Shown here: positions 3,002 through 62,736 of the stretch, one piece after another
How the letters are laid out: each line of letters begins with the position of its first letter
Numbering within the stretch: position 1 is the first letter of the stretch
Origin: Minisyncoccia bacterium
GTDB lineage: Bacteria > Patescibacteriota > Minisyncoccia > Moranbacterales > GCA-2747515
DNA: 64,000 bases
NCBI GenBank assembly: GCA_041738235.1
Contig: JBGSQF010000013.1
Location: 193,899 to 257,898 of the forward strand
Direction: 5' to 3'
The notes under the pieces: model-generated
What the model saw: the letters and a program-made list of their open reading frames with translations, nothing else
Told to the model about the DNA's origin: nothing
Database searches by the model: none
Position numbers and translations under genes: made by a program

Positions 3002-4708
3002 CTATTTTCTGATCGAACTCAGATCCCTGCCCCTTTCTATAACTCCGTTTTGCTTTATTTTTAATACCGACCGCTTGTTTTTATGACCCTCATCCCTTAA
3101 GGCCCCCATATCCACGGATGCCACGCTCAAGTCTTGTCTCTCGTACACCGGAAGAAATTGATCCGTGTGTCCATGAAATATAGCGTTGATACCCTGCTTT
3201 TTTATGGCATCAATAAAGTTAAACTCATCCTTCCCCGAAAGCCCCCTCCAAAAATATTCCCGGTTATCCGTATTCAGAAAGACGTCACGCAACTGATCAA
3301 AAAAGGGACTCGGCTCCTTATTGTTCAACAACACATCTCTCAATCCCGCCTGATAATATGTATTGATACGATCAACCATCATCTTTATATCCCCCTGCTT
3401 CGTCAATGTCTCCATCATAGAAAATGTCGGATCGGTATGTGTAAACAAACTGTCATCATGCACTACAGCCAATTTGAAATTACACATCGTTTCTAACATT
3501 TCCCTCCCCCGAGAATCCCCTTGCATATTTCTGAGCACCAATTCTCTTTCTGCATTGAGTTGTTGCCAAATACGTTCCTGCTGCCCGGCGTCCAGCGTTG
3601 TGAATGCATCCAGATCAACACCGCTGAGTTGTGAAGACCCGTATCTGCATAGTTCTAATAGCCCGTAATAGTGACCCTGTCGACACGACTCAAAAGCGTC
3701 AGAACTGGCCGCCCCAATCCTACCAGAAAGAAATGAGAGAAAAAAATCTTCATGATTTCCAGAAAGTATATCGATCTCCCCCCCTTGCAACTTCGCCTCT
3801 TTGGATAATTTCGAGATCATGTCTACCGCATCCATCCCATGTGTCTGCCTATCCCCGAGAATATCTCCATGAAAAACTACTTTTCTATCACCGCCAGTCC
3901 AGCGTAAATTTCCACCCGCATCCACAGACACCACCCCCAAACTCTCCAGATTTGCCCTTAAGGCCTCGACACTCCCGAACAGATCTCCTACCGCCATCAC
4001 CTCACTTGCCCGAGGAATTTTTCTCCAGTCCATAGCTTCGGCCTCTCCGATTTTTTTGCTTTGGTCTTTTGGTTGTGGCAGATCAGGACTCAACACCCCA
4101 CCCTCTGCTGTGCCCCGTGTCTTTGTAGAAAGATCTTCTTCCTTGTGACTCACAACCCTAGATTCTTTCAGGTCCGGGGATCCTAACTCTTTCGCCTTCC
4201 GGTATTCTTGAAGAGCCAATTCATACTGAAAGTTGGTCAGAACCTCTCTATCCACATCAGATAGAGTGGGTGAAAATTTTCCTTCCGCACCTTTTTGCTG
4301 AAAATACAAAAATTCCTCACGAAGTTCTGACATTAAGAAACTATCTTCTGCAAGCAGAGATGAAATGTCACCCTCTCCTCTCACAAACCGTCCAACACGA
4401 TCACCGGACAAGGCGATCGCCCGATCCATCAATACTTTGTCATCCCCCTCCAACCCAGCGTAAAAATCATTGAACGCCTTTCTCTTTCCTTCCTCTCTTT
4501 TGATCTCTCTTCGCTGAGTTTCAGCAACGATCTCCTTTCTTTGTCTCAGAACGCTCTCTCTTTTTGCCACATCGACCGGCAAAGCATCATGCAAAAGAAA
4601 CTCCTCCACAAGCTTGCTTGGCAATCCACGCAATTTTGTTGGAATGAAGACCTCTCCTGAGGGAGAAACTTCCCTTTGTTCATGAACATCCATGTGTTTT
4701 ACTATCAC
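3002..4708 (-). CDS. PPP-family (calcineurin-like) metallophosphoesterase with a long N-terminal extension
   Basis: VVFHGDILGDRQ (GDxxDR) and LSGNHEDFF (GNHE) metal-binding motifs lie in the middle of a 568-aa protein. The N-terminal ~230 aa are charged with a coiled-coil character. Confidence 0.6.
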   Translation of the reverse strand: MIVKHMDVHEQREVSPSGEVFIPTKLRGLPSKLVEEFLLHDALPVDVAKRESVLRQRKEIVAETQRREIKREEGKRKAFNDFYAGLEGDDKVLMDRAIALSGDRVGRFVRGEGDISSLLAEDSFLMSELREEFLYFQQKGAEGKFSPTLSDVDREVLTNFQYELALQEYRKAKELGSPDLKESRVVSHKEEDLSTKTRGTAEGGVLSPDLPQPKDQSKKIGEAEAMDWRKIPRASEVMAVGDLFGSVEALRANLESLGVVSVDAGGNLRWTGGDRKVVFHGDILGDRQTHGMDAVDMISKLSKEAKLQGGEIDILSGNHEDFFLSFLSGRIGAASSDAFESCRQGHYYGLLELCRYGSSQLSGVDLDAFTTLDAGQQERIWQQLNAERELVLRNMQGDSRGREMLETMCNFKLAVVHDDSLFTHTDPTFSMMETLTKQGDIKMMVDRINTYYQAGLRDVLLNNKEPSPFFDQLRDVFLNTDNREYFWRGLSGKDEFNFIDAIKKQGINAIFHGHTDQFLPVYERQDLSVASVDMGALRDEGHKNKRSVLKIKQNGVIERGRDLSSIRK

Positions 4709-4728
4709 TTTTTAAACCCAAAAGAACA

Positions 4729-6597
4729 TCATTCCAATATTGCCTTGATCCTTCGTACTCCAGCACTGGAAGATTCTTCTTTTGTGATACGGAATTTTCC
4801 TTTTATATCAGCCGTTCTTTCAACGTGTGGACCTCCGCATAGCTCTTGAGAATAGATATTCCCCTCTCGGTCCTCAACAATATATACGTTCACCATTTCA
4901 GGATATTTCTCCCAAAAACTTCCCTCAACACCCTCAGCACGCGCCGTATCCTTCGGCATCGTAGTAATTCGAACCGAACATCCCTTGGAGATCGCCTCAT
5001 TCACATAGGCCTCCACCTCATCCAAGATCTCACGACTTACTTTTTCGGGATGCGTGAAATCAAATCGTGTTCGCTCCACTGTAATATTTGAACCAGCTTG
5101 ATGTACATGATCGCCCAGGTACTTTCGAAGCCCTGCAAGCATAAGGTGTGTCACCGTGTGAAGCATGGTCGTCTTTTCACTGTGATCAGCGAGTCCTCCT
5201 TTAAATTTCCCTGCCGACGCTGTTCGTGAAAGATCACGGTGTTTTTGAAACTCTTCTCGATACTGATCAATATTTACTTCTATACCTTTCTCCTCCGCAA
5301 GTTCTTGGGTCATCTCCATCGGAAACCCATACGTAGAGAAAAGAATAAAAGCATCACGCCCATCAACAGACCCCTTTTGGGAAACCAGTCTTTCAAACTC
5401 TCGCAATCCCTTTTGCAAGGTCTTTCGAAATTTCATCTCTTCCTCTGCCACGATCCTTTCGATATTGTTCTCCTTTTCCTTAAGAAAAAGGTATGCATCG
5501 GCGTAGTACTCCGCGATGGGCAATGTGAGATCCTTGAGTGACCCTACCGACATACCAATTGAATCAGCAAAACGAATTGCGCGACGAAGGAGTCTTCGAA
5601 GTACATATCCTCTTTCCGTGTTAGATGGTACTATTCCCTCCCCGATCATAAACACCGAACCTCGAACATGGTCAGCTACGATTCGAAAAGAACGCTTATC
5701 CTCAGCGTATTTCTTTCCAGAAAGCTGTTCCATCTTTTCAATAAGACTTCGAAAAATATCAAGGCGAAAAACATCCGACTCGTCACTTGCTGCAGCCGCA
5801 ATACGCTCGAGCCCTCCACCAAAGTCGACATTACGCTGTGGCAGTTTTTCAAACTTCCCCTCTCGCTTGATAAACTCCATAAAGACAGAGTTCCCGATCT
5901 CCATAAACCGCCCACAATCACAATTTGGATGACACTCAGCACCAAATTTCTCATCATGCAGGATGTCAGTAAATTCGTAGAATACCTCACTATCGGGTCC
6001 ACCCGGTTCTCCCTCAGGCATATTGTCCGGCACGCCCGACCGGCTCCACCAATTCTTTTTTGCTCCGTACGAGAATATCCGACCCCCCTGCATCCCCACC
6101 TTGCTTGCTCGCTCTTCTGTAAGCATTTCTCTATGTTCTGCTTCAATTCCTTTTTCCCCAAAAAGCCTCTTCCAAATTTCAATGGATTCATCATCCCTCC
6201 CTACACCACTCTTTTCATCTCCTGAAAACACCGTAACGTAGAGTCGATTTGGATCAATTTTCAATTCCTGAACCAAAAAAGTGAAAAACCAGCGAAGTTG
6301 TTCTTGTTTAAAATACTCTCCTAGAGACCAGTTCCCCAACATCTCAAAGTATGTCGTATGTCTATTATCTCCAACTTCTTCAATATCCTCAGCTCGAAAA
6401 CAGCGCTGTGAATTCACCAACCGATTCCCCTCCGGATGCGATTGTCCAAGAAGATACGGAATGAGTGGTTGCATCCCCGATCCGGTAAACAACGTCGTAG
6501 GATCATTTTCCGGAAATATCGACGATGACGGAATAACCGTATGTCCGTTTTTCTGACAATATTCCAAATATTTTTTACGTATTGCATTTAACATCAT
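4729..6597 (-). CDS. alaS: Alanine--tRNA ligase, short form lacking the C-Ala domain
   Basis: FTGSGMQP and RCFRAEDIEEVGDNRHTTYFEMLGNWS are class II AlaRS signatures. HTVTHLM...H editing-domain motifs are also present. The protein is only 622 aa. Confidence 0.9.
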   Translation of the reverse strand: MMLNAIRKKYLEYCQKNGHTVIPSSSIFPENDPTTLFTGSGMQPLIPYLLGQSHPEGNRLVNSQRCFRAEDIEEVGDNRHTTYFEMLGNWSLGEYFKQEQLRWFFTFLVQELKIDPNRLYVTVFSGDEKSGVGRDDESIEIWKRLFGEKGIEAEHREMLTEERASKVGMQGGRIFSYGAKKNWWSRSGVPDNMPEGEPGGPDSEVFYEFTDILHDEKFGAECHPNCDCGRFMEIGNSVFMEFIKREGKFEKLPQRNVDFGGGLERIAAAASDESDVFRLDIFRSLIEKMEQLSGKKYAEDKRSFRIVADHVRGSVFMIGEGIVPSNTERGYVLRRLLRRAIRFADSIGMSVGSLKDLTLPIAEYYADAYLFLKEKENNIERIVAEEEMKFRKTLQKGLREFERLVSQKGSVDGRDAFILFSTYGFPMEMTQELAEEKGIEVNIDQYREEFQKHRDLSRTASAGKFKGGLADHSEKTTMLHTVTHLMLAGLRKYLGDHVHQAGSNITVERTRFDFTHPEKVSREILDEVEAYVNEAISKGCSVRITTMPKDTARAEGVEGSFWEKYPEMVNVYIVEDREGNIYSQELCGGPHVERTADIKGKFRITKEESSSAGVRRIKAILE

Positions 6598-6635
6598 AAC
6601 TTTATAGGATCTAACAGTACAGACTTTTAATTTAT

Positions 6636-7193
6636 TTACACCGTTCTTACATCTTCTTCTTTCTTCTTTCGTATCTCCTCGATCTTTTCGTTATACTCAT
6701 CCACTACCTTCTGCAAAACATCTTTTCCCTGAAATTTCTCATCCTCTCCGAATTCTCCCGCCTCTTGTGCCTTCTGAATGGCTGACCATGCATCCTCACG
6801 GATCTTTCGAATAGCAATGCGCGCCTCTTCCGCTTTCTTCCCCACCATCTTCACGAGTTCTTCACGGCGCTCTTCGGTCAACGGAGGAAGATTCAAACGT
6901 ATCACCTGACCATCATTGGCAGGATTAAGTCCCAAGTCCGACTCACGGATCGCCGCTTCGATCTGTACCGCTGCTCCCTTATCCCAGGGAGAGATCGTTA
7001 TGGTTCGTGGCTCAGGAATATGCACCGTCGCAAGCTGTTCGATCGGCATTTTGGAACCATACATATCTACCACGATCCCATCAAGCAACGATGTGCTCGC
7101 TCGTCCTGTTCGTACTTTTGCCAACTCCTGCTTGAAATTTACTATCGTATGCTCAAATCGCTCTTTTTCTACAGAAATGTATTGTTCAAACAT
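6636..7193 (-). CDS. frr: Ribosome recycling factor
   Basis: 185 aa with a conserved RRF sequence (ISVEKERFEHTIVNFKQELAKVRTGRAS...LNLPPLTEERREEL). Confidence 0.95.
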   Translation of the reverse strand: MFEQYISVEKERFEHTIVNFKQELAKVRTGRASTSLLDGIVVDMYGSKMPIEQLATVHIPEPRTITISPWDKGAAVQIEAAIRESDLGLNPANDGQVIRLNLPPLTEERREELVKMVGKKAEEARIAIRKIREDAWSAIQKAQEAGEFGEDEKFQGKDVLQKVVDEYNEKIEEIRKKKEEDVRTV

Positions 7194-7229
7194 AAGGTTA
7201 TTTTAAGAATTATAGACCAAGAAAATTAT

Positions 7230-8354
7230 TTATTGCTTTGCCGACTCTCGAAGACCTACATAAATAATGCCTGGGTTTTTGAAGTCATGGATCATCACAC
7301 TCACAGAAGCTTTATCGGCATCAAGTTGATACGGGAACCAATTTACTCCACCATCCGTCGTTCGATAAATGGCCTGAGCGCTATTGTAGTAGATCTCACT
7401 TGAATTCTCAGGACTTACTACGACCGAGGCTATAGGAAATGCCTTGGAGCTCCCAATGATGTTTATTTCTTCCCAATTTGCACCATACCCTGAAAAACGA
7501 AAAAGTCCTTTATTCGTTCCCACGTACCCCACGCCCTGCAGTTTTCTATCAAGCGAATAAGAGTAAACTGAACCGACCACCACGTCTTTTACAGCACATT
7601 CTTTCCCTTGTACACAAGCCTTCTTTTTTTCATCAAGTGCTTTCTTCCACTCTTCCTTCATATCAACAAATGTGTTGCCACCATCTCGACTCATAAGAAG
7701 ACTGTTTTGAAACGTCATAACATACACGATACTCTCGTTAAAAGGATCTACGGAAAGTGCACGGACGGGTTTTCCAGCATTAAACTTATTTTCCCATGTC
7801 GCTCCACCGTCTTGGGTCATAATGATCACGCCAGTACTCGTTCCGGCATATACAACATCGGGCACACTTTTTTTGAGTGCCAAGGAAAGCAGTACTGTCC
7901 CGTCCGCCGGCTCCGTATAAGTTTCCTTCCAGGTTTCCCCACCATCTATGGTCTTTGCGATCTTTGCTCTTCCATTGAAGACACCTGTCACATACGCGAT
8001 ATTTGAATCAGAAGGATGTGTAGCGATCGCGTAATTCTTTTGGATCGGCACATTGACTTGCGCCCAAGTCTCCCCACCATCTTTGGTCATAAAGACCCCA
8101 CTCTCCAACGACCCGAGATAGATCTTCTTGGTATCCATATAATCCATACCCAAAGAAAGAACGTTCACTTTTGCAATGTTCTTTTTATCATCGACTTTTA
8201 CGATCGGCTTATAGGCTTGTCCCCGATCATCGGAACGTATCATTCCTCCAGTCATCGTCGAAATAGACACTTCTGTATTCCCAGTTGGTAATGTACATCC
8301 CGAAAGCAGAAACGCTACAACAAGAACAAGCCCACTTCCCACGATCTTTTTCAT
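7230..8354 (-). CDS. Lipoprotein with BNR/Asp-box (sialidase-type) repeats
   Basis: Signal peptide plus lipobox (LLSGC). There are at least five S/T-x-DGG-x-T-W repeats: TKDGGETW, TIDGGETW, TQDGGATW, SRDGGNTF and TTDGGVNW. Confidence 0.75.
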   Translation of the reverse strand: MKKIVGSGLVLVVAFLLSGCTLPTGNTEVSISTMTGGMIRSDDRGQAYKPIVKVDDKKNIAKVNVLSLGMDYMDTKKIYLGSLESGVFMTKDGGETWAQVNVPIQKNYAIATHPSDSNIAYVTGVFNGRAKIAKTIDGGETWKETYTEPADGTVLLSLALKKSVPDVVYAGTSTGVIIMTQDGGATWENKFNAGKPVRALSVDPFNESIVYVMTFQNSLLMSRDGGNTFVDMKEEWKKALDEKKKACVQGKECAVKDVVVGSVYSYSLDRKLQGVGYVGTNKGLFRFSGYGANWEEINIIGSSKAFPIASVVVSPENSSEIYYNSAQAIYRTTDGGVNWFPYQLDADKASVSVMIHDFKNPGIIYVGLRESAKQ

Positions 8355-8424
8355 AAGCGTATTGTTTTTTTACTTTTTCTTTATTATAGCATAAAAGAGC
8401 ATAAAGAAAAGCCTCTTTTCCCCA

Positions 8425-8517
8425 ATAAAAAAACGCTTTGCGCGTTGTTGTTTCCTGAAAAACTTTTGTCGGCGGGGACAAGCGGATCCTGATACTACAA
8501 GAATCCAGCTTGTCCCC
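8425..8517 (-). repeat. Box+hairpin unit X1: AATAAAAAAACGCTTTGCGCG box, then a 10-bp GC stem (GGGGACAAGC/GCTTGTCCCC) with GATACTAC in the loop
   Basis: Direct reading of the sequence. On the minus strand the order is strong hairpin, then mini-hairpin CGCGCAAAGCG plus U-run. This is a terminator-like 3' end for a minus-strand transcript. Confidence 0.5.
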
Positions 8518-8929
8518 ACTTGCTTGAGCCATCAGACCGGGTTGACGCTGACTCGGTGCGCTCCCAGAGCCTGTCGGGCGATCGTCGTGATCTTGGTCAT
8601 GCGATCAGAGTCGGGAGAGCCGTGGAGAATGACAGAAAAATGAGCACTTCCTTTCTGGTCAACCCTTCCACGGACCACCTTGTGACACCCTATCTGCGCT
8701 TAGCATAGCGCTTCGAATAGAGCGCCTTCGCTCCCGAGCTTCCCGTTTCCATTCCTGGGAACCGCCTTAAGAGTAAGTCTTGTCTTCAACTCTTGCCTCT
8801 TTTCTTGTGTCCTCCACCAGAACTCCAAGCTCCGGCTCTGGTATTGACCTGTGTATGAAATTGCCTCCCAATTTCACCTATTTTATATACCCCATTTTAA
8901 GAAAAGATGCAACATATAAATACTCAGAC

Positions 8930-9055
8930 AATAAAAAACACGCTTTGCGCGCGATCATTTTTTACCGATAAAGAATATTACTGGGCGGAGGACTCAGCGG
9001 TTGGGTTTTTATTGGTGCGATACTACGACACCACCCTCGCGCTTTGTCCTCCGCC
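8930..9055 (-). repeat. Box+hairpin unit X2, paralogous to X1: AATAAAAAACACGCTTTGCGCGCG box, then stem GGCGGAGGAC/GTCCTCCGCC with GATACTAC in the loop
   Basis: The box and the loop motif are shared with X1. X2 lies immediately 3' (minus strand) of small ORF 9061..9261. Confidence 0.5.
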
Positions 9056-9523
9056 TACCCCTACCCCTGCTTGAGGCGGCCGGTCGATCCCGGTCCCTCC
9101 CGGAAAAACTCCGGGGAGAGTTCCCGGATCGCGACTGCCGCCGCCGCGAACTCCTCCGTCCCTGGGTCGAATTGACCCTCCCGAAGGAGGTATAGCCTTA
9201 TATCCTCATCGCTCTCATGGGATTCCATTCCCGTCCCCCAAACCATTTCTGCCATTCCCATTCTCTCTTTGTCTTACCCTCCCGAGATTCGTTCCCCCTT
9301 CTCGGTCAGACCTGCCCTAGAAATCGAGGATTTCCAACCCTCGACACCCTAAAGAACTTACCCTGTAATATAACATTTATTTCAAATAAAGTCAATACCC
9401 CGACATTGACATCCATTCTCAGTATGCCACCATATGAGTTACCTATCGGAAACACCGATCCGAGGGTAAAGAATCCGCAGAATTGCGGTAAGTATTCAAC
9501 CCAAGAAACGGAGAAAAAGGAAG

Positions 9524-9982
9524 GTGAATAAAACACCTGTAGAACTGGCGAGCATGCCCCCAGAAGCATTCCACGATCACCTCCTGGGAATCCTTCAGGA
9601 AATGCTCAGCCAGAACGAAAGTGGCGACGCTCCCGACAGAGGATTTTCCAATGCCGGTATCAACGATGAGGTTGATCGTGCTGCCCTGGGGATGCATCGA
9701 GAAACAGCTCAAGGATTCAGACAGATGAAAGGTGCCAACAAGGAGGAGTGTCGGGAAGCTCTCGATCGGATCAAGCACCACCCCGCGGAGATCGAAGTTT
9801 GTCAGAGCGGACTGGATGAGGACGATGGCTGTGAAGGGATCATTAGTCGGGCCCGACTTCAAGCCTACCCAATGACAACCCTTTGCAGGAACTGCCAGGA
9901 AAGGGCGGAGCGCAAAGATCCTTCCAATGGGAGAAACCGAATCGTACATCGACCCATCCGGATAGGAATGCTCAAGACATAG
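9524..9982 (+). CDS. DksA/TraR-family C4 zinc-finger protein
   Basis: C-terminal CQSGLDEDDGCEGIISRARLQAYPMTTLCRNCQ matches CxxC-(17)-CxxC with the conserved I..RL.A.P motif of the DksA/TraR finger. The gene sits in a visibly GC-rich island. The first codon is GTG; an alternative ATG is at 9554. Confidence 0.65.
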   Translation: MNKTPVELASMPPEAFHDHLLGILQEMLSQNESGDAPDRGFSNAGINDEVDRAALGMHRETAQGFRQMKGANKEECREALDRIKHHPAEIEVCQSGLDEDDGCEGIISRARLQAYPMTTLCRNCQERAERKDPSNGRNRIVHRPIRIGMLKT

Positions 9983-37264: not shown

Positions 37265-37462
37265 ATTTTTTTCAATAAAAAAGATCCCACATCGGCAATA
37301 CTCTTTCTGGCACTCATGCCACTTTCGAGATATAACCAAATACATGATACCGATCGCGAGACCGTTACTATGTACTTGAATTTGAGACCATGCCCTAGCA
37401 AAAACTATGGTTTAGGCCTATAATTCAGTTGTTGGCAATATTATATCACATTCTGAAACATT

Positions 37463-53884: not shown

Positions 53885-54626
53885 TCAACTTCTTTTCATT
53901 TCTCCACCTCTCGATTTCTTTATGATTTCCACTGAGCAGCACTTCTGGAACTTTCCACCCATTGAACTCCTCTGGACGGGTATAGTGGGGATATTCTTTT
54001 TGTATCTCTCCTGTATGAGTAGAAAGATCCCCTTCAGATCGCTCGCTCCCAAAACTTTCTTCCTTGAGAGATTCCTCGTTTCCCAAAACTCCCGGCAATA
54101 ATCGCGAAACACTGTCCACCACCACCATAGCCGGGATCTCCCCACCGGTAAGCACATACTCCCCAATGGAAAATTCTTCATCAACAATATGATCCGCCAC
54201 TCGCTCATCAACTCCTTCATACCGTCCACAGATCATAATAAGGCGTCCGTATTTCGCCAGTCTCTCAGCATCCCTCTGCGTAAACAACTTCCCCTTGGCA
54301 GAAAATAGAATAGTTCTCACATTTGTTGTTCTCTTATCAGAAAGAACGGTATTCAAGCTTTCTGCTCTTCCTCCCTGCTGACTATCGTTCATCTTCTGTT
54401 GCTTGATCATACTTACGGCGCGATGGATCGGCTCCACTTTCATTACCATCCCCGCTCCGCCCCCATAAGGAATATCATCCGTTGTTTTGTGTTTATCTGT
54501 GGCAAAGTCACGAAGGTTATGCACGACAATATCGATCTTATGTGATTCTTGTGCGCGCTTCAAAATCGACTCGCCAAAATATGAGTCGAAAATGTGAGGA
54601 AAAATGGTGATAATGTCAAACCTCAT
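53877..54626 (-). CDS. trmD: tRNA (guanine37-N1)-methyltransferase
   Basis: [10 protein letters not shown] and SPOUT-knot motifs ([13 protein letters not shown]). Confidence 0.9.
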
Positions 54627-55035
54627 ACCATCGCAAAGAATACTTGAACATGGGGATGTCCGAATTGTCGCAACGTCCCCACCGTGCTACACTTTATGTG
54701 TGTCCCTATCCTATCAGATGCGATGAATTGGGGCAAATAAAAATACCCTAACTCGGGAGCAGACCAGTGAAAAGACGTAAAAAAAAGCAAGTCGTATGCG
54801 TGGTGCCGTCATCTTCATCCGCGTTAGCGGTTAAGTATCTGCAGAGCACGCTTGATAAGGGGCACTCCGTGGAGATCCCCAGTCTCGGCATCACTCTTCA
54901 CCCTCAACGACGCAAACCTCCCACAAACTGAAAACGGCGCAGGGAAGAAGCCTCTTCCCTGCTCACTTCACAAGAGCTTTACTAGTTTGATTTTCAAAAC
55001 AAAGAGAGATCCTAAACAACACACATGTTCCCATT

Positions 55036-55491
55036 ATGAGAATCGTTATTTGCGGAAGCATCGACTTTACCCCAAAGATCAAAGAAGTTGCAGATATCTT
55101 GATTCGACAAGGACATACGGTCGACATACCTCTGACCAGTCAACGCATCATCAATGGTGAGCTTACTCTTCAAAAATTTTTAGAAGAAAAAGGTAAAAAC
55201 ACTACTTCAACTTCAAAAAATGTGATCCGCAAGATCAATGATGACGTCATCAAAAGATACTACTTAAAGATACAGGCATCCGATGCCATTCTCGTTCTTA
55301 ACGTAGAAAAAAAAGGGATAGCCCATTATATCGGTGGGAACGTCTTTCTTGAGATGGGATTTGCTCATGTGCTCAACAAAACAATCTATCTTTATAACAA
55401 GATCCCCCAAATGGCCTATACTGAAGAGATAGTAGCTATGCAACCCATAATCCTTGATGGCAACCTAAATCAAATTACAAAGGCTATATGA
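55036..55491 (+). CDS. Nucleoside 2-deoxyribosyltransferase-like / DNPH1 (Rcl)-family protein
   Basis: MRIVICGSID...ASDAILVLNVEKKGIAHYIGGNVFLEMGFAHVLNKTIYL parallels the Rcl fold motif SIYFCGSI...VGYELG. It overlaps the next gene by 4 nt. Confidence 0.55.
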   Translation: MRIVICGSIDFTPKIKEVADILIRQGHTVDIPLTSQRIINGELTLQKFLEEKGKNTTSTSKNVIRKINDDVIKRYYLKIQASDAILVLNVEKKGIAHYIGGNVFLEMGFAHVLNKTIYLYNKIPQMAYTEEIVAMQPIILDGNLNQITKAI

Positions 55492-57002
55492 AAACGCTAC
55501 TTGTTCTTCCTGTTCTGACCATGATCTCGATCGCGATCTATTCTTGTATCAGACTCTTCTTCTTTTTTACCGCAGATTACGGTTTTTGGGATAAGCTCTT
55601 TGCCATATTTCTCATACTTGGAGAGGCGTACATGATCATTCATGCTCTCGGTTTTATGATCAATGTCTTCAAGATAGATAGGCAAAAAGCAGCACCCCCG
55701 GCAAAAATCCCGGAAGGGTCACACCCAAGCGTCGCTGTCGTAGTAGCCGCAAAACATGAACCAAAAGAGGTTTTGGAGAGAACCTTTACAACACTGGCAT
55801 CAATGGACTATCCCGATTTTAACCTCTATCTATTGGACGGATCTACTGACGAAAAATACATTCAACAGGACAAGGACATTTCTCGAAGATACCACGTAAC
55901 GTATTTACATCCCAGCCAATTTCACGGAGCAAAGGCGGGTATAATAAATTTCTTCCTACAATATTCAGAAGAAAAATACATGGCAGTGTTCGATGCTGAC
56001 CAAAATCCCATGCCAGATTTTCTCAAAAAAGTAGTGGCTGTCGCTGAACAAGATGAAAATATAGCTTTCGTACAAACTCCACAATTTTACTCCAACTTGG
56101 CAGTAAGTCCTATCGCAAAGGGATCTGCTTTACAGCAAGCAGTTTTTTATGAAAGTATTTGCGAAGGAAAGAATACTAGTAATGCCATGTTTTGTTGCGG
56201 AACCAACGTGCTCTTCAGGATAAGCGCCCTGGAAAAAGTGGGTGGCTTTGTTGAGACTTCCATCACAGAAGATTTTGCCACATCAGTCAAACTCCACACC
56301 GAAGGTTTTAGGTCGGTCTATTACAATCACGCTAACGTTTTTGGTTTGGCTCCAGAAAGCCTATCAGCTTACTTTAAACAACAGTACCGATGGTCTGCAG
56401 GAACCGTAGGCGTTTTAAAAGAATTACTTTCTCGTTTTTCGAAGGACCCTGGTTCCCTTACTCTTGGTCAATGGTGGGAATACTTCTTATCATCCACCTA
56501 TTATTTTGTCGGTTGGGCATTCTTCCTACTTGTCATATGCCCACCGGTCTATCTCATATTTGATCTTCCCTCTTACTTCATCAGTCCTAAAGTATACATA
56601 TTGACATTTATGCCCTATTTCGTACTCACGCTATTCGTCTTTTATGGTATAATGAAGAAAAGAAAATATCATATCAGTGAGGTTTACAATGGGATCATTC
56701 TTGCCTCTGTGAGTTATCCGATCCTAATGCAAGCGGTCACCATGTCCTTATTGGGGAAAAAGATCACCTTCAATGTTACTCCGAAAGGCAAAACTCGAAA
56801 GATCCCTTTCCTCAAACTCTGGCCATGGACAGTTATGCTGATCATCAATGTCATAGCTGTATGCGTCGGTATATTCAAATTCCATAACAACCCTTACGCA
56901 ATAGGAGTTAACATGTTATGGTGCGTCTATCACATATTCATACTTTCCCATGTCTATTATTTAAACCACCTAAACACAAACAATAAACGCTACTCCATAT
57001 GA
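55488..57002 (+). CDS. Processive GT2 beta-glycosyltransferase, cellulose-synthase (BcsA)-like, without a PilZ domain
   Basis: All four processive-synthase motifs are present: D,D (LYLLDGSTDE), DxD (VFDADQNP), TED (SITEDFATS) and QxxRW (QQYRWSAGT). Two N-terminal and five C-terminal TM helices. Confidence 0.8.
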   Translation: MKTLLVLPVLTMISIAIYSCIRLFFFFTADYGFWDKLFAIFLILGEAYMIIHALGFMINVFKIDRQKAAPPAKIPEGSHPSVAVVVAAKHEPKEVLERTFTTLASMDYPDFNLYLLDGSTDEKYIQQDKDISRRYHVTYLHPSQFHGAKAGIINFFLQYSEEKYMAVFDADQNPMPDFLKKVVAVAEQDENIAFVQTPQFYSNLAVSPIAKGSALQQAVFYESICEGKNTSNAMFCCGTNVLFRISALEKVGGFVETSITEDFATSVKLHTEGFRSVYYNHANVFGLAPESLSAYFKQQYRWSAGTVGVLKELLSRFSKDPGSLTLGQWWEYFLSSTYYFVGWAFFLLVICPPVYLIFDLPSYFISPKVYILTFMPYFVLTLFVFYGIMKKRKYHISEVYNGIILASVSYPILMQAVTMSLLGKKITFNVTPKGKTRKIPFLKLWPWTVMLIINVIAVCVGIFKFHNNPYAIGVNMLWCVYHIFILSHVYYLNHLNTNNKRYSI

Positions 57003-57211
57003 CAAAAGAAGAAATACTCAGTAAATTAGACAAAGCGGTCATGCAAGAAGAGGAAGCGGTGCCTATTTATGCTGAGCACATATCAACCACAGCAATGTGG
57101 GCAGGCCTCTCAAATGCCGATATAGAGAAGATCAAAGATTACCTAAGAGTGCTACACGAAGAAAGTATTGGTCATGCAAAGGCCTTTGAAAAAATAAAGG
57201 AACTAATTTAA
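56999..57211 (+). CDS. Small ferritin-like protein with ExxH motifs (paralogue 1)
   Basis: 70 aa; EEEAVPIYAEH and LHEESIGHAKAF resemble diiron-ligand helices. Confidence 0.4.
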   Translation: MTKEEILSKLDKAVMQEEEAVPIYAEHISTTAMWAGLSNADIEKIKDYLRVLHEESIGHAKAFEKIKELI

Positions 57212-57215
57212 CCAT

Positions 57216-57425
57216 ATGCTCACAAAAGAAGATTTTCTCGGTTTTTGTGATCAACTCATGACCATCGAGATAGAAATGGAGCATGAAGCAATGGACCTAT
57301 TTGACCATATAGAAAACGAAGAGGCACGAAAGATACTCACAAAGATCTCGGAGGATGAGCGCCGTCATGAAGAGATCGTAAGGGACATAAAGAAAATAAT
57401 CGAAGACCATTATGCAGAAAATTAG
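57216..57425 (+). CDS. Small ferritin-like protein with ExxH motifs (paralogue 2)
   Basis: 69 aa; EMEHEAM and EDERRHEEI. Confidence 0.4.
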   Translation: MLTKEDFLGFCDQLMTIEIEMEHEAMDLFDHIENEEARKILTKISEDERRHEEIVRDIKKIIEDHYAEN

Positions 57426-58308
57426 GACAGCGGTCATCCCAGCTGGAGGACATGGTGTGAGATTCATGCCTGCATCAAAAAGCATTCCCAAAGAAATGTT
57501 CCCCATAGGAGAAAAGCCGGTTATCTACCATGTGGTTGATGAAGTAGTAAGGTCGGGCATTACTAACATTATATTCGTCGTTTCACACAATAAACAGTCC
57601 GTGGAACATTTTTTTTCTCCAAACATCGAACTGGAGGAATATCTCATGGGTCGAAAGAAGGAAGAAAAAGTAAGCGAGCTGAAAAAAATAGCTGAAATGG
57701 CTGAGTTTACCTTTGTCCATTCCAAACCCCCCTATGGAAATGGTTCCCCAATCAGTGCGGTCGAGCATCTCTTACAGGATGAACCTTTCGTGTTGGTTTG
57801 GGGAGACGAATTTGTTATAAATGGAGGAAGACCAAGAATACAACAATGCATAGAGGCTTATGAACAGATCGGAAAAACTGTTATTTCTGGATTTGAGATA
57901 AAAGATCCCAAACAAAGACAGCTGTACGGAATGGCAGAACTTAAGAACATAGATTCGCAAGACGAGACTATCCAGGAAATAATGAGGATAGTCGAAAAAC
58001 CTGATCTGGGACAAGAGCCTTCTCCTTATGCCACACATGGTGCCTATGTTCTCACACCAAAAATATTTGAAGCGCTTCACCACATCCAACCTGGAAAAAA
58101 TGGGGAATTATGGCTTACCGACATGCTCAACTATATTCAAGAGAAAGAAGGTTTGTTCACAAAGATCATCAAAGATGCAGATTATCTTGACTGTGGAAAC
58201 CCCCTCTTTTATCTACTGTCTCAGATAGATTATGCAATAAAAAGATCGGATTATAAAGATGACGTGTTTGAATATGTTAAAAAACTTGGTGCTTGCAAAA
58301 TCGATTAA
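57412..58308 (+). CDS. galU: UTP--glucose-1-phosphate uridylyltransferase (sugar-1-phosphate nucleotidyltransferase)
   Basis: AVIPAGGHGVRFMPASKSIPKEMFPI nucleotidyltransferase P-loop, typical of GalU. Confidence 0.8.
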   Translation: MQKIRTAVIPAGGHGVRFMPASKSIPKEMFPIGEKPVIYHVVDEVVRSGITNIIFVVSHNKQSVEHFFSPNIELEEYLMGRKKEEKVSELKKIAEMAEFTFVHSKPPYGNGSPISAVEHLLQDEPFVLVWGDEFVINGGRPRIQQCIEAYEQIGKTVISGFEIKDPKQRQLYGMAELKNIDSQDETIQEIMRIVEKPDLGQEPSPYATHGAYVLTPKIFEALHHIQPGKNGELWLTDMLNYIQEKEGLFTKIIKDADYLDCGNPLFYLLSQIDYAIKRSDYKDDVFEYVKKLGACKID

Positions 58309-59410
58309 GTTGACACTGTTTACCCTCTTAGGTGTTCTGTTGCTCTCTGGTGTGCTGTTCTTCTATAGTACTAGCCCCTACACAACTCGTAAGTTCGAAT
58401 TCCAATCAAATATTGGTAACTCACTAAAGGTCTTTCTTTACAATGAAAGTGCTTTTAATGATCCAATTCCAGGCTGCTGGTACGATAGTGGGGACTATAT
58501 TGTTTTTCTACACCGAAATGCCGAGACCTTTTACTACCTCTCTCTCGCATACGAACAAGCATCATCACCACAAGTCAAAGCTGATATCAAATACGTTCTA
58601 GATAGACAAAGCACCTGCATAGATGGCATGCTCAAGAGAAACTATAAACAGTTTGGTGATCAAGGGAGTCATGGTATTAACCTTCCACCGACATTCAGTT
58701 CTGCATTCTACCCAAGAAATAATTACCATATGAGACCAGGCGAAGGAAAAGATGTCTATCTTTTGTATAGCCTGTCATTTACCAACCTTGGTGATACAAA
58801 AAATGCAGCCAACTGGCTAAAGAAGGCAGAAGAGGCAGACACAAAGACCATCTCAGAGAATTGTTGTGAGGGGGGCCCTCTCTTTTTGACCCCCATGGAC
58901 TACACTGGACTTACAGGACTTTCAGGTATAGAAGATGTCAATGCGAGAGACCTCAACACTATATGGGGGGTACATTTTCCTGCCCTACTCTCAATAAAAA
59001 ACGGAGAAAAGGGAATGCTTAGCGATATGCTTTCCTCAGTAGAAGAACGGTGGACTCAACATGACTCCCCCTTCCTTTATTTGGGAGGAAACTATGATAT
59101 TGCTGGAACCATTGCCCTGGAACGTATGTATGCCAAAAAATTCAACGATCACTCTTTTGATGATCTAGCCTCCTCGCTTATACACTACCTCAAAGGCGAG
59201 AATCAGTATCACACAGACTTTACCAATTATCCATCTCCTTATCATCCTTGTGCTTTTTTTGCTAGCTGCTCTTTACCAGACACGCTTATCAATGGTGCTG
59301 ACAGCGATGGATTTGATCCAAAGAGAAACGACATATGGCGAAACACGGAAATACAGTTGTTTGGTCAAGCGGAATACGTTCTCGCCTTAGTGCTCTATAA
59401 TAATTGGTGA
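58259..59410 (+). CDS. Membrane-anchored glycoside hydrolase, GH9-like putative endoglucanase
   Basis: N-terminal TM helix; PGCWYDSGDY resembles the GH9 GGWYDAGDH signature, within a ~350-aa alpha/alpha-barrel-sized domain. Confidence 0.45.
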   Translation: MTCLNMLKNLVLAKSIKLTLFTLLGVLLLSGVLFFYSTSPYTTRKFEFQSNIGNSLKVFLYNESAFNDPIPGCWYDSGDYIVFLHRNAETFYYLSLAYEQASSPQVKADIKYVLDRQSTCIDGMLKRNYKQFGDQGSHGINLPPTFSSAFYPRNNYHMRPGEGKDVYLLYSLSFTNLGDTKNAANWLKKAEEADTKTISENCCEGGPLFLTPMDYTGLTGLSGIEDVNARDLNTIWGVHFPALLSIKNGEKGMLSDMLSSVEERWTQHDSPFLYLGGNYDIAGTIALERMYAKKFNDHSFDDLASSLIHYLKGENQYHTDFTNYPSPYHPCAFFASCSLPDTLINGADSDGFDPKRNDIWRNTEIQLFGQAEYVLALVLYNNW

Positions 59411-59450
59411 AACCATTTACACGGTCCGCTCCCCTTAAAGAAATTCCTAT

Positions 59451-59804
59451 ATGAACAACAACGAACTTCCCTCACGTCCAGAGATCCCCTTTCCTCTTCC
59501 CCGTCCAAAAGATATCGTTCTTTTAGATGGAAGATACACCCAGTGCATTATGGCAAATTCATACAGAATAGTTCTCACCTCTCTCGATCAGCAGGAGGTT
59601 GTAGAAATAGACTCCAAGGATCTTCACAAGTATACCTACGTTCCTCCAACTCGAGATCAAGTGCTCGCCAAACATCTTGTGACACAAGGAGCTATGACCC
59701 AAAAAGAGCTCAGTCTCGTCCGATGGGGATCAGAAGAAAAACAAAATCCCCATCTCAAAGGAGAGGTCACCTTCTTCGGAACCTACACAAAAAAAGACGC
59801 TTGA
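59451..59804 (+). CDS. Hypothetical protein (last gene of the operon)
   Basis: 117-aa ORF with a terminator immediately 3'. Confidence 0.4.
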   Translation: MNNNELPSRPEIPFPLPRPKDIVLLDGRYTQCIMANSYRIVLTSLDQQEVVEIDSKDLHKYTYVPPTRDQVLAKHLVTQGAMTQKELSLVRWGSEEKQNPHLKGEVTFFGTYTKKDA

Positions 59805-59810
59805 AACAAA

Positions 59811-59837
59811 AAAACAACCCCTTTCGGGGTTGTTTTC
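59811..59837. terminator. Bidirectional terminator AACCCC-TTTC-GGGGTT flanked by A- and T-runs
   Basis: Lies between the convergent gene 59451..59804 (+) and the KH-domain gene (-). Confidence 0.6.
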
Positions 59838-59853
59838 ATATCGCTTCTACAAA

Positions 59854-60417: not shown

Positions 60418-62736
60418 TTACACATCTTTTCCCTCCATATCTTCCTTCTCCAACTTTACTGAAAGAAGTTGCGACACACCATCTGTTCCCATGGTCACAC
60501 CATAAAGCACATCTGCTGCACGCATTGTTTCACGATTATGGGTAATAACGATAAACTGGGTCTTGCGAGCAAGTGTTTCCAAGATACGACTAAATCGTTC
60601 TGAGTTAGACTCATCAAGCGCCGCTTCCACCTCATCCAATACCGAGAATGGCGGTGGACTGTAAGCGATAACAGCAAAAAGAAGCGCCAAGGAAACAAGT
60701 GACCGTTCCCCTCCCGACATCATAGAAAGCGAGTGGATACGCTTCTTCGGTGGGGATACCTTAATGTCGATCCCGATCTCACGAGAAGCACTTGTGGCGG
60801 GAAGGGCCACGAGTCCCTCCTCAACATCTTCTTCCGTTTCTTCTCCTTCCTTTTCACCAGAGGGCGTCTTCTCCCTATCCAATACCACCTGTTCCAACTT
60901 TGCTTCACCACCATCAAACATCAAAGTAAAGAATTTTGAGAATTCTCGGTTAATGGATTCGAATGCTTTGGTGAACTCCTTCTCAATACGAGAATCCATC
61001 TCCTTTACGATCTTGTTCAGTGAAATGATCGTCTCCTCCAGATCTTTCAACTCGCCACTTAAGAAATCGTATCGTTCCTGTGTTTCTCGATACTCTTCCG
61101 CTACCAATGGGTCAATACCTCCGATCTGAGAAAGTGTCGTTTGAAGTCGAGATATTTTTCTCTCCACCTCAAAAGTATCAACAGAATCGGAAATATCGGG
61201 TAACGTCTGTGGGTCGACAGCCAGCACATTATGGATGTCTCGCTTCAGATCCTCCTCACGCACCTCTACCCGAGCACAAACGATCTTAGCCTCGTTCCAA
61301 CGATCCTTCACCTTCTCCGCATCCATCTGCAAAGCATGCATTTGCTTCTCGATCTCAAGGAACTCTGCATTTACCTTCTTGGCGTTCTGCGACTTCGCAA
61401 TCATTTTTTCTTCCCACTGACGAACAGCCTCTTTATGTTCAAGGATCTCTTTTTGAAATTGGTCTCGCTGAATTTCGAGTGTTGATATTCGCTCCCTAAA
61501 TCGACGCTCTTCCGCCTCAATAACAGATTGATCTCGCTTTACCTCAACTCTCGATTTTCCGCAGTTTATATGAAGACTCTCCAGAAGCGATCCTATTGCG
61601 CGCGACTCCTCTCGAAGACCGTTGAGTTCCTCTATGGACCGTATCTCCTCAAGACGTTTTGTAAGTTCCTTCTGCTTGGTGCGGATCTGATCTAGCTCTC
61701 GGCGAACGAAAACCAGGTCAACAGGAATACTATCAACCTTGCGTTGATGCCTCGATCGCTCTTTCTCCATCTCCAAACGACCTTCAATAAAAGACTGCTG
61801 TCGTTCAGCTTGAGAAAGTTTTTCACGGATCTTAGAAAGTTCATGACGAGAACCGTCGTCGTCAGTATCACCAGATGATAAAGCTTTTGCCGCAAGTTCT
61901 TTCTTTTCATAGAGCGTATCAATATCACGCTGAAAACGCATTACCTCACGCCCAGATATCATCTTCGCCTCTTCTGCCTGAGCTCGCTCGTTCTCTAAGG
62001 CGTCCCAAAGAGTCTTATAGTACTGCTGTTGGAGACTCTTCAATTCAACCTCCAACGACTCTCTCTGTTCAGCCTTCTTAGCCTGTCGTCGAAGCAAACG
62101 CAAACGTGGCTCTATCTCGTTGAGCAATTCTTGGGTACGATCCATGTGCTCCCTTGATGTGGCTAACTTTCGCAAGGCTCGTTCGCGTTTCAATTGAAAG
62201 GGCTTGACTCCTGCCGCCTCTTCTACAATAGAACGTCGCTCAAACGGATTAGCATTCAAAATTGCGTCTGACATTCCTTGATTAAGCACGCAGTGACTCT
62301 CCTTCCCGATCCCGCCAGTCGCCAACATATCTACTACATCAAGCATTCTCACCTTTGATCCGTTTATCTTGTATTCCCCCTCCCCGCTTCGATAGATCTT
62401 TCGTGAAACTGAGATCTCGGTATAAGGAACCGGAATACGTTTATCGGCATTGTCAAAAAAGAGCGTTACTTCAGCATAATTCTGCCTCGACTTTCCTTTC
62501 GATCCAGCAAATATTACATCATGTGATTTCTTCCCACGAAGACTTTTCACAGACTGCTCTCCCATTACCCAACGAATGGCGTCGGCGACATTCGATTTCC
62601 CGGACCCATTTGGTCCCACGACCGCGGTAATTCCCGTCCTTCTCCCCGTTCCTCCCGTTCCCGGAACATCAAAAACAAGCGAAGTTTTGTTCGCAAAAGA
62701 TTTAAAACCAATGAGCTCTATACGTTTGAGATACAT
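60418..62736 (-). CDS. smc: SMC-family chromosome-segregation ATPase, unusually short (772 aa)
   Basis: N-terminal Walker A VVGPNGSGKSN, C-terminal signature LSGGERSLVSLALLFA and Walker B VLDEVEAALD, with ~450 aa of coiled coil between them. It lies immediately downstream of rnc, matching the conserved rnc-smc synteny. Confidence 0.8.
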   Translation of the reverse strand: MYLKRIELIGFKSFANKTSLVFDVPGTGGTGRRTGITAVVGPNGSGKSNVADAIRWVMGEQSVKSLRGKKSHDVIFAGSKGKSRQNYAEVTLFFDNADKRIPVPYTEISVSRKIYRSGEGEYKINGSKVRMLDVVDMLATGGIGKESHCVLNQGMSDAILNANPFERRSIVEEAAGVKPFQLKRERALRKLATSREHMDRTQELLNEIEPRLRLLRRQAKKAEQRESLEVELKSLQQQYYKTLWDALENERAQAEEAKMISGREVMRFQRDIDTLYEKKELAAKALSSGDTDDDGSRHELSKIREKLSQAERQQSFIEGRLEMEKERSRHQRKVDSIPVDLVFVRRELDQIRTKQKELTKRLEEIRSIEELNGLREESRAIGSLLESLHINCGKSRVEVKRDQSVIEAEERRFRERISTLEIQRDQFQKEILEHKEAVRQWEEKMIAKSQNAKKVNAEFLEIEKQMHALQMDAEKVKDRWNEAKIVCARVEVREEDLKRDIHNVLAVDPQTLPDISDSVDTFEVERKISRLQTTLSQIGGIDPLVAEEYRETQERYDFLSGELKDLEETIISLNKIVKEMDSRIEKEFTKAFESINREFSKFFTLMFDGGEAKLEQVVLDREKTPSGEKEGEETEEDVEEGLVALPATSASREIGIDIKVSPPKKRIHSLSMMSGGERSLVSLALLFAVIAYSPPPFSVLDEVEAALDESNSERFSRILETLARKTQFIVITHNRETMRAADVLYGVTMGTDGVSQLLSVKLEKEDMEGKDV

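Follow-up and report, generated by a model that had tools for sequence, protein, structure and literature searches.

A PilZ-less BcsA-type synthase operon with a split ferritin-like protein pair in a Minisyncoccia bacterium: a candidate minimal beta-glucan secretion system

With which partners, and under what control, might a bacterial cellulose-type synthase operate when it has neither a PilZ domain nor a BcsB subunit? The question is raised by a cluster of seven open reading frames (ORFs), denoted g1–g7, in a stretch of 64,000 nucleotides from a Minisyncoccia bacterium of the Patescibacteriota (contig JBGSQF010000013.1, positions 193,899 to 257,898 of the forward strand; referred to here as the window). 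The cluster encodes a family 2 glycosyltransferase (GT2) related to the cellulose synthase BcsA (g2), two small ferritin-like proteins (g3 and g4), a GalU-like protein (g5) and a membrane-anchored protein related to glycoside hydrolase (GH) family 9 (g6), flanked by g1 and g7. We consider it probable that the locus is a minimal system, independent of cyclic di-GMP (c-di-GMP), for the synthase-dependent secretion of a beta-glucan of the cellulose type from a cell with a single membrane. An initial annotation, made from the sequence alone, had described a seven-gene operon for a cellulose-like beta-glucan that was unusual for its lineage. This interpretation was partly supported: it was largely right, with three corrections, namely that the conserved unit is a triad and not seven genes, that cellulose is not settled as the product, and that the system also occurs outside this lineage.

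The best match of g2 among the NCBIfam families was to TIGR03030 (CelA; E = 5.5e-72, 242.8 bits, profile positions 60–560 of 714), followed by PgaC at 84 bits. Its best relatives of solved structure in the PDB were BcsA from E. coli (E = 1.4e-41) and from R. sphaeroides (E = 3e-39), and the alignment spans E. coli residues 203–684, corresponding to the core from transmembrane (TM) helix 3 to TM helix 8 together with the GT domain. The D, DxD, TED and QxxRW motifs of processive synthases, which had been reported in the initial annotation, were all present, in a series that reads LLDGS, FDAD, QTPQ, FCCGT, TED and QQYRW, and the gating loop FNVTPK aligns with FNVTAK in the E. coli protein (FxVTxK). 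Residues D169/D171, Q196-P198-Q199, F235-C-C-G238, T260-E-D262, Q298..R301-W302 and F428..T431.K433 were invariant in 33 relatives, and the motifs as a whole were invariant or almost so.

The AlphaFold2 (AF2) model of g2 (pLDDT 87) begins with two TM helices, followed by a GT-A domain and interface helices, and has four more TM helices at its C-terminus. A comparison of the synthase channel with that of BcsA had been suggested at the outset, and in Foldseek searches with this model the E. coli and R. sphaeroides BcsA structures ranked best (TMq 0.77–0.83, E = 1e-23 to 1e-29), ahead of plant CesA (TMq 0.66–0.72) and then hyaluronan synthases, CslF6 and cyclic glucan synthase. The reported absence of PilZ was confirmed: Pfam gave no match to this domain, and just 16 residues follow the last TM helix that aligns with BcsA. 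No homologue of BcsB, CcsB or GlxA was found among the seven ORFs with Pfam and NCBIfam. These results suggest that g2 is a processive synthase of the BcsA class that has been cut down to its core, with no C-terminal extension, and that it would work like BcsA while standing outside the canonical BcsA equivalog. We do not call it a canonical equivalog because it scores below the curated cutoff and comes without PilZ and without BcsB. Its family consists of PilZ-less synthases of about 505–515 residues, and the 1,734 matches at E < 1e-20 came from Elusimicrobia, Omnitrophota, Latescibacterota, Fibrobacteres, Verrucomicrobia and Patescibacteria.

We compared ten loci, including the window, in which the synthase is 46–72% identical to g2 (subfamily A). 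The synthases found beside most other GH9-like genes share only 32–35% identity with g2 (subfamily B). The gene contents of the subfamily A relatives are listed in Table 1. The g3/g4 pair is present in the operon in nine of the ten loci, when the window and one Magasanikbacteria-like locus with a truncated g3 (L026) are counted. In the Elusimicrobia, Omnitrophota, Fibrobacteres and Latescibacterota loci, a GH26 gene always separates the synthase from the ferritin-like pair; three of these four, all but L027, have TPR genes upstream. While the diderm relatives thus add TPR proteins and, in one case, a possible outer-membrane protein, the Patescibacteria loci have none. All loci that carry a GH9-like gene and have enough flanking sequence contain a GT2, two small ORFs (about 62–75 and 57–64 residues), usually GalU, and the GH9-like gene; one of them (L018) has a different gene order.

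Since the order of GT2, two small ORFs, GalU where present, and GH gene recurs in every retrieved relative locus with enough flanking sequence, the gene arrangement is more than chance. The comparison of operon content that had been called for thus upheld the order of the genes, but GalU and the GH gene turned out to depend on the lineage. Judged from these comparisons, the evolutionary unit is the synthase together with the split pair, with the other parts swapped according to lineage and envelope type: GalU, a GH9-like or a Lic26A-like GH26 glycanase, and the TPR proteins are all lineage-dependent additions. The seven ORFs of the window are indeed tightly packed and co-directional, as first described, but the functional unit within them is the GT2 with the two small proteins, and g1 and g7 are not linked to it in relatives. 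Nor is the system confined to the lineage: it recurs in several classes of Patescibacteria and in at least four diderm phyla.

The two small proteins had been recognized as mini ferritin-like proteins but treated as incidental to the operon. The identification stands, with matches to Pfam Rubrerythrin in g4 and in the Omnitrophota (L029) orthologue of g3, but no other part of the system is as strongly conserved, or as poorly explained, as this pair. The g4 match (23.4 bits, cutoff 22.8) covers positions 93–136 of 137, the C-terminal half of the domain, while that of the L029 g3 orthologue (25.3 bits) covers positions 1–58; g3 of the window itself is below the threshold in Pfam. The L029 orthologue of g4 likewise matches the C-terminal half of Rubrerythrin, as well as positions 83–134 of 138 of Ferritin_2 (E = 4e-5, 24.1 bits, cutoff 24.7). 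A six-sequence profile of g4 matched the designed di-iron helix-loop-helix peptides Due Ferri in the PDB (E = 7e-6), the ferritin-like di-iron protein TM1526 (4e-4) and symerythrin (3e-3) and, more weakly, bacterioferritin and the encapsulin cargo proteins EncB/EncC. The g3 profile gave a weak match to helix A of bacterioferritin.

Across eight to nine loci from at least six phyla, E17, A20, Y24, H27, S56 and H59 of g3 are invariant and residue 55 is E or D; the invariant residues of g4 are D6, E18, M21, E48 and H51. Each protein has one carboxylate in its first helix and a carboxylate plus a histidine in its second, which resembles the two-metal ligand set of ferritins; the g4 ligands (E18 and E48-x-x-H51) are canonical, while those of g3 deviate in the spacing within the second helix. 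A search with the g3 family yielded 40 proteins, all of 64–82 residues, none of which was a fused, single-chain g3-g4 form. At least ten of the 40 share a contig with a GT2 match, as judged from equal longest-contig sizes. Both g3 and g4 are acidic and have no hydrophobic segment, and are therefore expected in the cytoplasm. Aligned with each other as possible paralogues in hhalign, they gave just 63% probability, over the second helix. From this pattern of half-domain matches and ligands, g3 (helices A and B) and g4 (helices C and D) are predicted to make up, half each, a single four-helix bundle of the rubrerythrin/ferritin-like type. The corresponding small ORFs of subfamily B lack the histidine ligands and retain their size and order. 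They show weak, co-linear hhalign matches to g3 and g4 (E = 2e-3 and 3e-4, probability 14–41%), and homology is plausible. The lack of ligands in these partners suggests that a structural role of the pair came first or persists.

The candidate glycanase, g6, matched the Pfam GH9 family PF00759 with 32.3 bits (gathering threshold 27.7), and 25 of 29 members of its own family matched GH9 at E ≤ 0.01. In the PDB, phmmer reached the GH9 enzyme J30 with no better than E = 0.09, and the g6 family profile found no GH9 among PDB sequences. An AF2 model based on 29 homologues had a pLDDT of 92.8, and the top 33 PDB matches to this model in Foldseek were all GH9 enzymes, with the (alpha/alpha)6 barrel of that family. 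Identity to the solved GH9 enzymes is 13–17%, and g6 is about 100 residues shorter. The sequence GCWYDSGDY aligns with GGWYDAGDY of J30, the DAGD motif that holds the catalytic base pair (here D76 and D79), and C73, W74, D76, G78, D79, H329 and E364, together with six cysteines, are invariant across 29 family sequences. E364, the putative catalytic acid, lies within the pattern W-x3-E-x-Q-x3-Q-A, which may resemble the PROSITE signature of GH9; the residue is placed by its invariance in the family. The membrane-anchored GH9-like protein of the initial annotation was thus borne out, with a GH9 and not a GH8 fold and with the aspartate pair and glutamate conserved. Two of the outcomes that would have undone the original assignment, a GT2 of the non-processive kind and a hydrolase domain that failed the family models, were not seen: g2 matched TIGR03030 and BcsA and g6 scored above the Pfam cutoff for GH9.

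A single TM segment (residues 14–39) with lysines on its N-terminal side, along with the conserved cysteines and active-site residues, indicates that g6 is probably a type-II anchored, disulfide-bonded, extracytoplasmic and active enzyme. Based on the model, it represents a compact (about 340 residues) and highly divergent branch of the GH9 fold, beyond detection by sequence from the solved GH9 enzymes. The branch is small, with 39 protein clusters among 5.8 billion, ten loci in 185,579 species genomes and ten in a metagenome scan, and its named carriers are Patescibacteria (Magasanikbacteria, Uhrbacteria) except for one bin. That bin (CAYZYJ010000040.1) has a cluster of GT2, the small pair, GalU and a GH9-like gene, and its label, "uncultured Gammaproteobacteria", probably stems from mis-binning or mislabelling. 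The branch is relevant to the classification of GH9 in CAZy and to enzyme mining.

The annotation of g5 also held up, as GalU-like. Of 41 families, TIGR01099 (galU) was the best match (E = 3.5e-65, 220.2 bits, positions 1–259 of 261), and the Pfam NTP_transferase family matched with E = 1.7e-25. Orthologues with 48–74% identity adjoin the synthase in most of the Patescibacteria loci. We infer that g5 is a GalU-like UTP-glucose-1-phosphate uridylyltransferase that would supply UDP-glucose.

Taken together, the proteins suggest the following sequence of events. UDP-glucose would be made by g5, as expected from homology, and polymerized by g2, which would thread the chain through its own six-helix channel; here the activity is assigned by homology and the channel is taken from the model. 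The synthase keeps its gating loop but lacks the PilZ domain by which that loop is normally tethered. Outside the cell, the TM-anchored GH9 barrel of g6 would cut beta-1,4 linkages, a role assigned by homology to a modelled fold, and thereby trim or release the polymer, or clear a stalled synthase, as BcsZ (GH8), CcsZ (GH5), CslZ and plant KORRIGAN (GH9) do in their own systems. In the cytoplasm, g3 and g4 are hypothesized to pair into a four-helix bundle with a two-metal carboxylate/histidine site and to be a subunit, accessory or regulatory, on which this synthase subfamily depends, given the linkage and the ligands seen in the comparative genomics. Our preferred guess, which we still rate as unlikely, is a switch responsive to redox state, O2 or iron that stands in for the PilZ/c-di-GMP input. 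In its specific form, in which a heterodimeric di-iron bundle docks on the cytoplasmic face of the synthase and gates or stabilizes it in response to redox state, O2/H2O2 or iron, this is a speculative proposal that we think unlikely to be correct. If true, it would mean that cellulose-type exopolysaccharides are under a metal-based, c-di-GMP-independent control in Patescibacteria, Elusimicrobia, Omnitrophota, Fibrobacteres and Latescibacterota.

Several observations weigh against a c-di-GMP-independent, cellulose-type system with a metal-containing partner. Both enzymes at its centre fall below the trusted cutoffs of their best families, g2 with 242.8 against 699.1 bits for the TIGR03030 equivalog and g5 with 220.2 against 326.8 bits for TIGR01099. 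The synthase RiGT2 loses its activity when its PilZ domain is truncated (PMC10374906), so that a core without PilZ is not necessarily active at all times. The Verrucomicrobia locus (L031), a close relative, has no small ORFs. The second helix of g3 carries its ligands as (E/D)55-x3-H59, with i/i+4 spacing, and not as a canonical ExxH, and since the subfamily B partners have no histidine ligands, metal chemistry is not universally required. The sister operons carry a lichenase-type GH26 and not a cellulase, and sequence and fold cannot separate cellulose synthases from mixed-linkage synthases (PMC10374906).

The last two points bear on the identity of the polymer. Because GalU supplies UDP-glucose, and because of the closest relatives of the synthase, the sequences point to a beta-glucan, within which cellulose and mixed-linkage glucan are not separable. 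We are rather confident that the polymer contains beta-1,4-linked glucose, whereas plain or modified cellulose has a little less than an even chance. The cellulose-like beta-glucan initially proposed stands as a probable beta-glucan, and cellulose is not established. Evidence for cellulose comes from a Patescibacteria locus (L030, GCA_049318005.1) in which a gene for a BcsG-type phosphoethanolamine transferase (PF11658, 396 bits) is convergent to an operon of GalU, GT2 and the small pair; the adjacent synthase is 48% identical to g2. This gene hints at phosphoethanolamine-modified cellulose outside the Proteobacteria. The foremost alternative is that the same architecture makes a mixed-linkage (1,3;1,4)-beta-glucan, or another non-cellulosic polymer such as curdlan, with the GH9-like and GH26 enzymes acting as lichenase-type trimmers; we regard it as possible, though on the doubtful side. 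The GH26 of the Omnitrophota locus, the only copy compared with solved structures, is closest to the lichenase CtLic26A (C. thermocellum "Endoglucanase H"; E = 1e-51), with mannanases at 1e-14, and GH26 occupies the same position in Elusimicrobia, Fibrobacteres and Latescibacterota. Mixed-linkage glucans are also among the substrates of many GH9 endoglucanases. RiGT2 makes a mixed-linkage glucan although its motifs and fold are BcsA-like, and according to its authors the predicted structure would fit cellulose just as well (PMC10374906).

Another explanation concerns the small pair, which might be an independent module for oxidative stress or iron handling that travels with the synthase and has no role in glucan synthesis. 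Rubrerythrin-type proteins serve in general peroxide defence in anaerobes, the position of the pair varies, following the synthase in Patescibacteria and the GH26 gene in the diderm phyla, and the ligand-less partners in subfamily B show that the metal site is dispensable. However, the nine loci with the pair represent at least six phyla, and in them it is always within the same co-directional cluster, with stop and start codons that usually overlap or nearly abut. The narrow size range of the g3 family, and its co-occurrence with synthases on the same contigs, also speak for a link, and the two small ORFs of subfamily B, which have kept their size and order after losing the ligands, indicate a structural tie to the synthase. 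We consider an independent module unlikely.

A third possibility is that g6 is not a hydrolase at all, but a glucan-binding, membrane-anchored partner comparable to BcsB, CcsB or GlxA, whose TM helix stabilizes the channel. No homologue of these three partners is encoded in the operon, and identity to active GH9 enzymes is very low. The activity of CslA-GlxA requires the single N-terminal TM anchor of GlxA (PMC11022532), and g6 has such an anchor. On the other hand, the invariance of D76, D79, H329 and E364 in the 29 family members points to retained catalysis, and the absence of a nearby GH9-like gene in L028, L030 and L032 means that g6 is not an obligate partner. The two roles are not mutually exclusive, but a purely non-hydrolytic g6 seems improbable to us. 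Finally, we hold it to be very improbable that the genes came together by chance, or form a horizontally acquired island in decay, and do not function as a system: the GC content of the cluster (40.5% at 56–58 kb, compared to about 44–45% nearby), its strand opposite to all neighbours and an IS110 transposase after the truncated g3 in a related population would fit, but none of the seven ORFs is disrupted, the catalytic residues are conserved, the gene order is conserved across phyla, and identical copies were found in two further sequencing runs.

The proposed beta-glucan system can be placed among known ones, in which a core synthase is combined with a non-homologous partner and a glycanase of varying GH family, and in which the partners BcsB, CcsB and GlxA are required by their synthases (PMC11022532, PMC7710045, PMC8892547). 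For poly-N-acetylglucosamine, it has been proposed that c-di-GMP is sensed at a composite interface between PgaC and the small membrane protein PgaD (same sources). The Bcs systems (BcsA-BcsB-BcsZ-BcsC, types I–III) share with the present locus the synthase fold, the D/DxD/TED/QxxRW motifs, the FxVTxK gating loop and an extracytoplasmic endoglycanase encoded in the operon, and the TPR proteins of the diderm relatives of g2 are comparable to BcsC and BcsK. Plant CesA and KORRIGAN presumably offer a further parallel, in that the synthase has no PilZ domain, does not depend on BcsB and is served by a GH9 endoglucanase with a type-II membrane anchor. This is analogy and not orthology, in view of the low identity and smaller size of g6 relative to any solved GH9. 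The clostridial CcsA-CcsB-CcsZ system is similarly of a monoderm type, with no outer-membrane components and a glycanase other than GH8, but CcsA keeps its PilZ domain, CcsB is a CBM11-like membrane protein, CcsZ belongs to GH5, and the cluster includes acetyltransferases and neither ferritin-like proteins nor GalU (PMC7710045). CslA-GlxA-CslZ of Streptomyces likewise unites a BcsA-like synthase, a glycanase and a non-homologous partner that is a metalloprotein, and GlxA, like g6, has a single N-terminal TM helix as its anchor (PMC11022532). GlxA is, however, a large extracellular radical copper oxidase, whereas the metalloprotein candidates here are two cytoplasmic helix hairpins of about 70 residues, and CslA, unlike g2, has a partial PilZ signature and is c-di-GMP-responsive (PMC11022532). 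RiGT2 and BgsA resemble g2 as BcsA-like GT2 enzymes whose sequence hides the linkage specificity, and BgsA lacks a canonical PilZ domain; in contrast to g2, which has no C-terminal extension, RiGT2 needs its PilZ domain and BgsA binds c-di-GMP at its C-terminus (PMC10374906).

The g3 and g4 proteins have counterparts in symerythrin, rubrerythrin, TM1526 and the half-ferritins (EncB/EncC, Due Ferri), in which a helix-loop-helix with an E...ExxH pattern pairs into a two-metal bundle. Here, two genes encode the N- and C-terminal halves, predicting a heterodimer instead of a homodimer or a single chain. The (E/D)-x3-H spacing of g3 also departs from these proteins, as does the genomic partner, which is a glucan synthase and not an encapsulin or peroxidase system. 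The component classes, namely a processive GT2, GalU, an operon glycanase of variable GH family and half-ferritins, are known. What appears to be undescribed is their combination, the widespread subfamily of PilZ-less core synthases, the ferritin-like partner split over two chains as a predicted heterodimer, and the compact GH9 branch restricted to Patescibacteria. A full-text literature search found no description of a cellulose synthase in Patescibacteria (the candidate phyla radiation) and none of a Bcs-type operon with GH9, GH26 or ferritin-like parts, although most subscription papers were outside the reach of the search and the absence is weak evidence.

Cellulose secretion of the synthase-dependent type is a textbook case of c-di-GMP control, and a widespread PilZ-less version with a split ferritin-type pair is a candidate for another principle of control or assembly. 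For Patescibacteria, which have small genomes and are often episymbiotic, a self-contained operon suggests an investment in an extracellular glucan, with a bearing on host attachment, aggregation and survival.

The positions of the ORFs and other features are collected in Table 1. The upstream neighbours (murG, ftsW and trmD) and the downstream neighbours (the KH-domain gene, smc, rnc and nusB) are all on the minus strand, which makes the seven-ORF cluster a discrete plus-strand island. Overlaps of 4–14 nt had been noted between the genes. This is correct for g1/g2 and g2/g3 (4 nt each) and for g4/g5 (14 nt), but g5 and g6 overlap by 50 nt from the first ATG of g6, or by 35 nt from M6, where the g6 orthologues begin; gaps of 4 nt and 40 nt separate g3 from g4 and g6 from g7, respectively. 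Co-transcription of the seven ORFs is plausible from this tight packing. The hairpin after g7 was scored by the scan on the minus strand, with a T-run after it, and on the plus strand has an A-run before it and a T-rich 3' arm; it is probably a bidirectional intrinsic terminator. The perfect hairpin upstream of g1 is not followed by a T-run on the plus strand. A promoter scan was uninformative, with 12 sites against 11.9 expected. A c-di-GMP riboswitch or leader upstream of g1, considered as a replacement for PilZ, was ruled out: an Rfam scan of positions 54560–55100 gave no family at E ≤ 0.1 and only noise at E ≤ 10, and the fold z-score of the region was only −1.7.

Table 1. Features of the seven-ORF cluster and its surroundings in the window, and gene content of related loci. 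The gene order is given for related loci, with lengths in residues (aa) for the small ORFs.
Locus	Feature	Coordinates	Strand	Remarks
Window	g1	55036-55491	+	151 aa
Window	g2	55488-57002	+	504 aa
Window	g3	56999-57211	+	70 aa
Window	g4	57216-57425	+	69 aa
Window	g5	57412-58308	+	298 aa
Window	g6	58259-59410	+	383 aa; likely true start M6 at 58274
Window	g7	59451-59804	+	117 aa; orphan ORF, putative coding status
Window	Divergent intergenic region trmD(-)/g1	54627-55035		410 nt; presumed promoter or 5' leader
Window	Perfect 10-bp hairpin upstream of g1	54939-54962		GCAGGGAAGA-AGCC-TCTTCCCTGC; about 75 nt upstream of g1
Window	Hairpin between convergent g7 and KH-domain gene	59810-59837		GC-rich, 12-bp stem
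Window	LOOT RNA (Rfam RF03000)	37297-37418	-	
Window	SMC-like ORF	60418-62736	-	772 aa
L027 (Elusimicrobia)	GT2, GH26, 80 aa, 65 aa, 270-aa possible outer-membrane protein	GH26 7539-8519; 270-aa protein 8973-9785		
L029 (Omnitrophota)	TPR, TPR, GT2, GH26, 75 aa, 64 aa	GH26 6509-7441		
L033 (Fibrobacteres)	TPR, GT2, GH26, 82 aa, 64 aa	GH26 4325-5161		
L034 (Latescibacterota)	TPR, GT2, GH26, 73 aa, 66 aa	GH26 6194-7030		
L028	GT2, 75 aa, 66 aa, GalU			
L030 (Patescibacteria)	GalU, GT2, 76 aa, 62 aa; convergent BcsG-like gene	BcsG-type gene 6953-8524	BcsG-type gene -	GCA_049318005.1
L032 (Falkowbacteria)	GT2, 80 aa, 62 aa, GalU			
L026 (Magasanikbacteria-like)	GT2, truncated g3, IS110 transposase	3956-5115		JGI 3300025308, contig Ga0209211_10014565
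L031 (Verrucomicrobia)	GT2, no small ORFs			
L005	Response regulator, 226-aa protein, response regulator, synthase	4608-6011		Subfamily B; ENA ERZ27293400, k141_870986

The first and last ORFs of the cluster are local passengers. The initial designation of g1 as DNPH1-like was not sustained. Its match to Pfam PF05014 was below threshold (E = 0.099, 13.2 bits, cutoff 28.8), and neither g1 alone nor a profile of its family gave any match in the PDB, to a nucleoside 2-deoxyribosyltransferase (NDT) or DNPH1 structure or otherwise. The g1 family comprises 960 representative clusters of proteins of about 140 residues; PF05014 was matched at E ≤ 0.01 by 15 of 30 relatives, at best with E = 6e-5. N89, K92, G100, E106 and E131 are invariant in the family, and E106, within GGN.FLEMGFA, presumably corresponds to the catalytic glutamate motif of the PF05014 family. 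With DNPH1 or NDT set aside as an identification, g1 may be a cytoplasmic protein distantly related to NDT-like proteins, with a weak likeness in sequence. Although it is translationally coupled to g2 in the window, g1 is outside the conserved module: a homologue occurs near the module solely in L008 and L019, 3 kb away and on the opposite strand, and is absent elsewhere. For g7, no match was found in Pfam, NCBIfam, PHROG or PADLOC, and tblastn found nothing in any related locus. PHROG and PADLOC also gave nothing meaningful for g1, g3 and g4, a single DRT match at 13 bits being disregarded.

A few further features of the related loci were noted. The Magasanikbacteria-like synthase (L026) is 72% identical to g2, and the adjoining g3 is cut to 47 residues, directly followed by an IS110-family transposase and unrelated genes. 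For the nearest GH9-like relative, the contigs, among them L004 from the same metagenome, start inside g3 and continue with g4, GalU and GH9. Either an insertion sequence has split the operon in L026, or the assembly was interrupted there by a repeat. The 270-residue protein that follows the pair in the Elusimicrobia locus has a signal-peptide-like N-terminus and no Pfam match, and may be an outer-membrane export component. In L005, which has no GalU, the synthase is directly preceded by two response regulators that flank a 226-residue protein with no Pfam match, an arrangement that suggests two-component control of this synthase.

Elsewhere in the window, Rfam and tRNA scans of the whole stretch identified only tRNA-Gln and a LOOT RNA, both far from the locus. 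The LOOT RNA covers the full model (59.1 bits, gathering threshold 46.4) and sits in the only other part of the window with near-zero GC skew (36–40 kb). A typical bacterial SMC protein has about 1,180 residues. In the much smaller SMC-like ORF downstream of the cluster, both halves of the head are recognizable, and the coiled coil is apparently much shortened.

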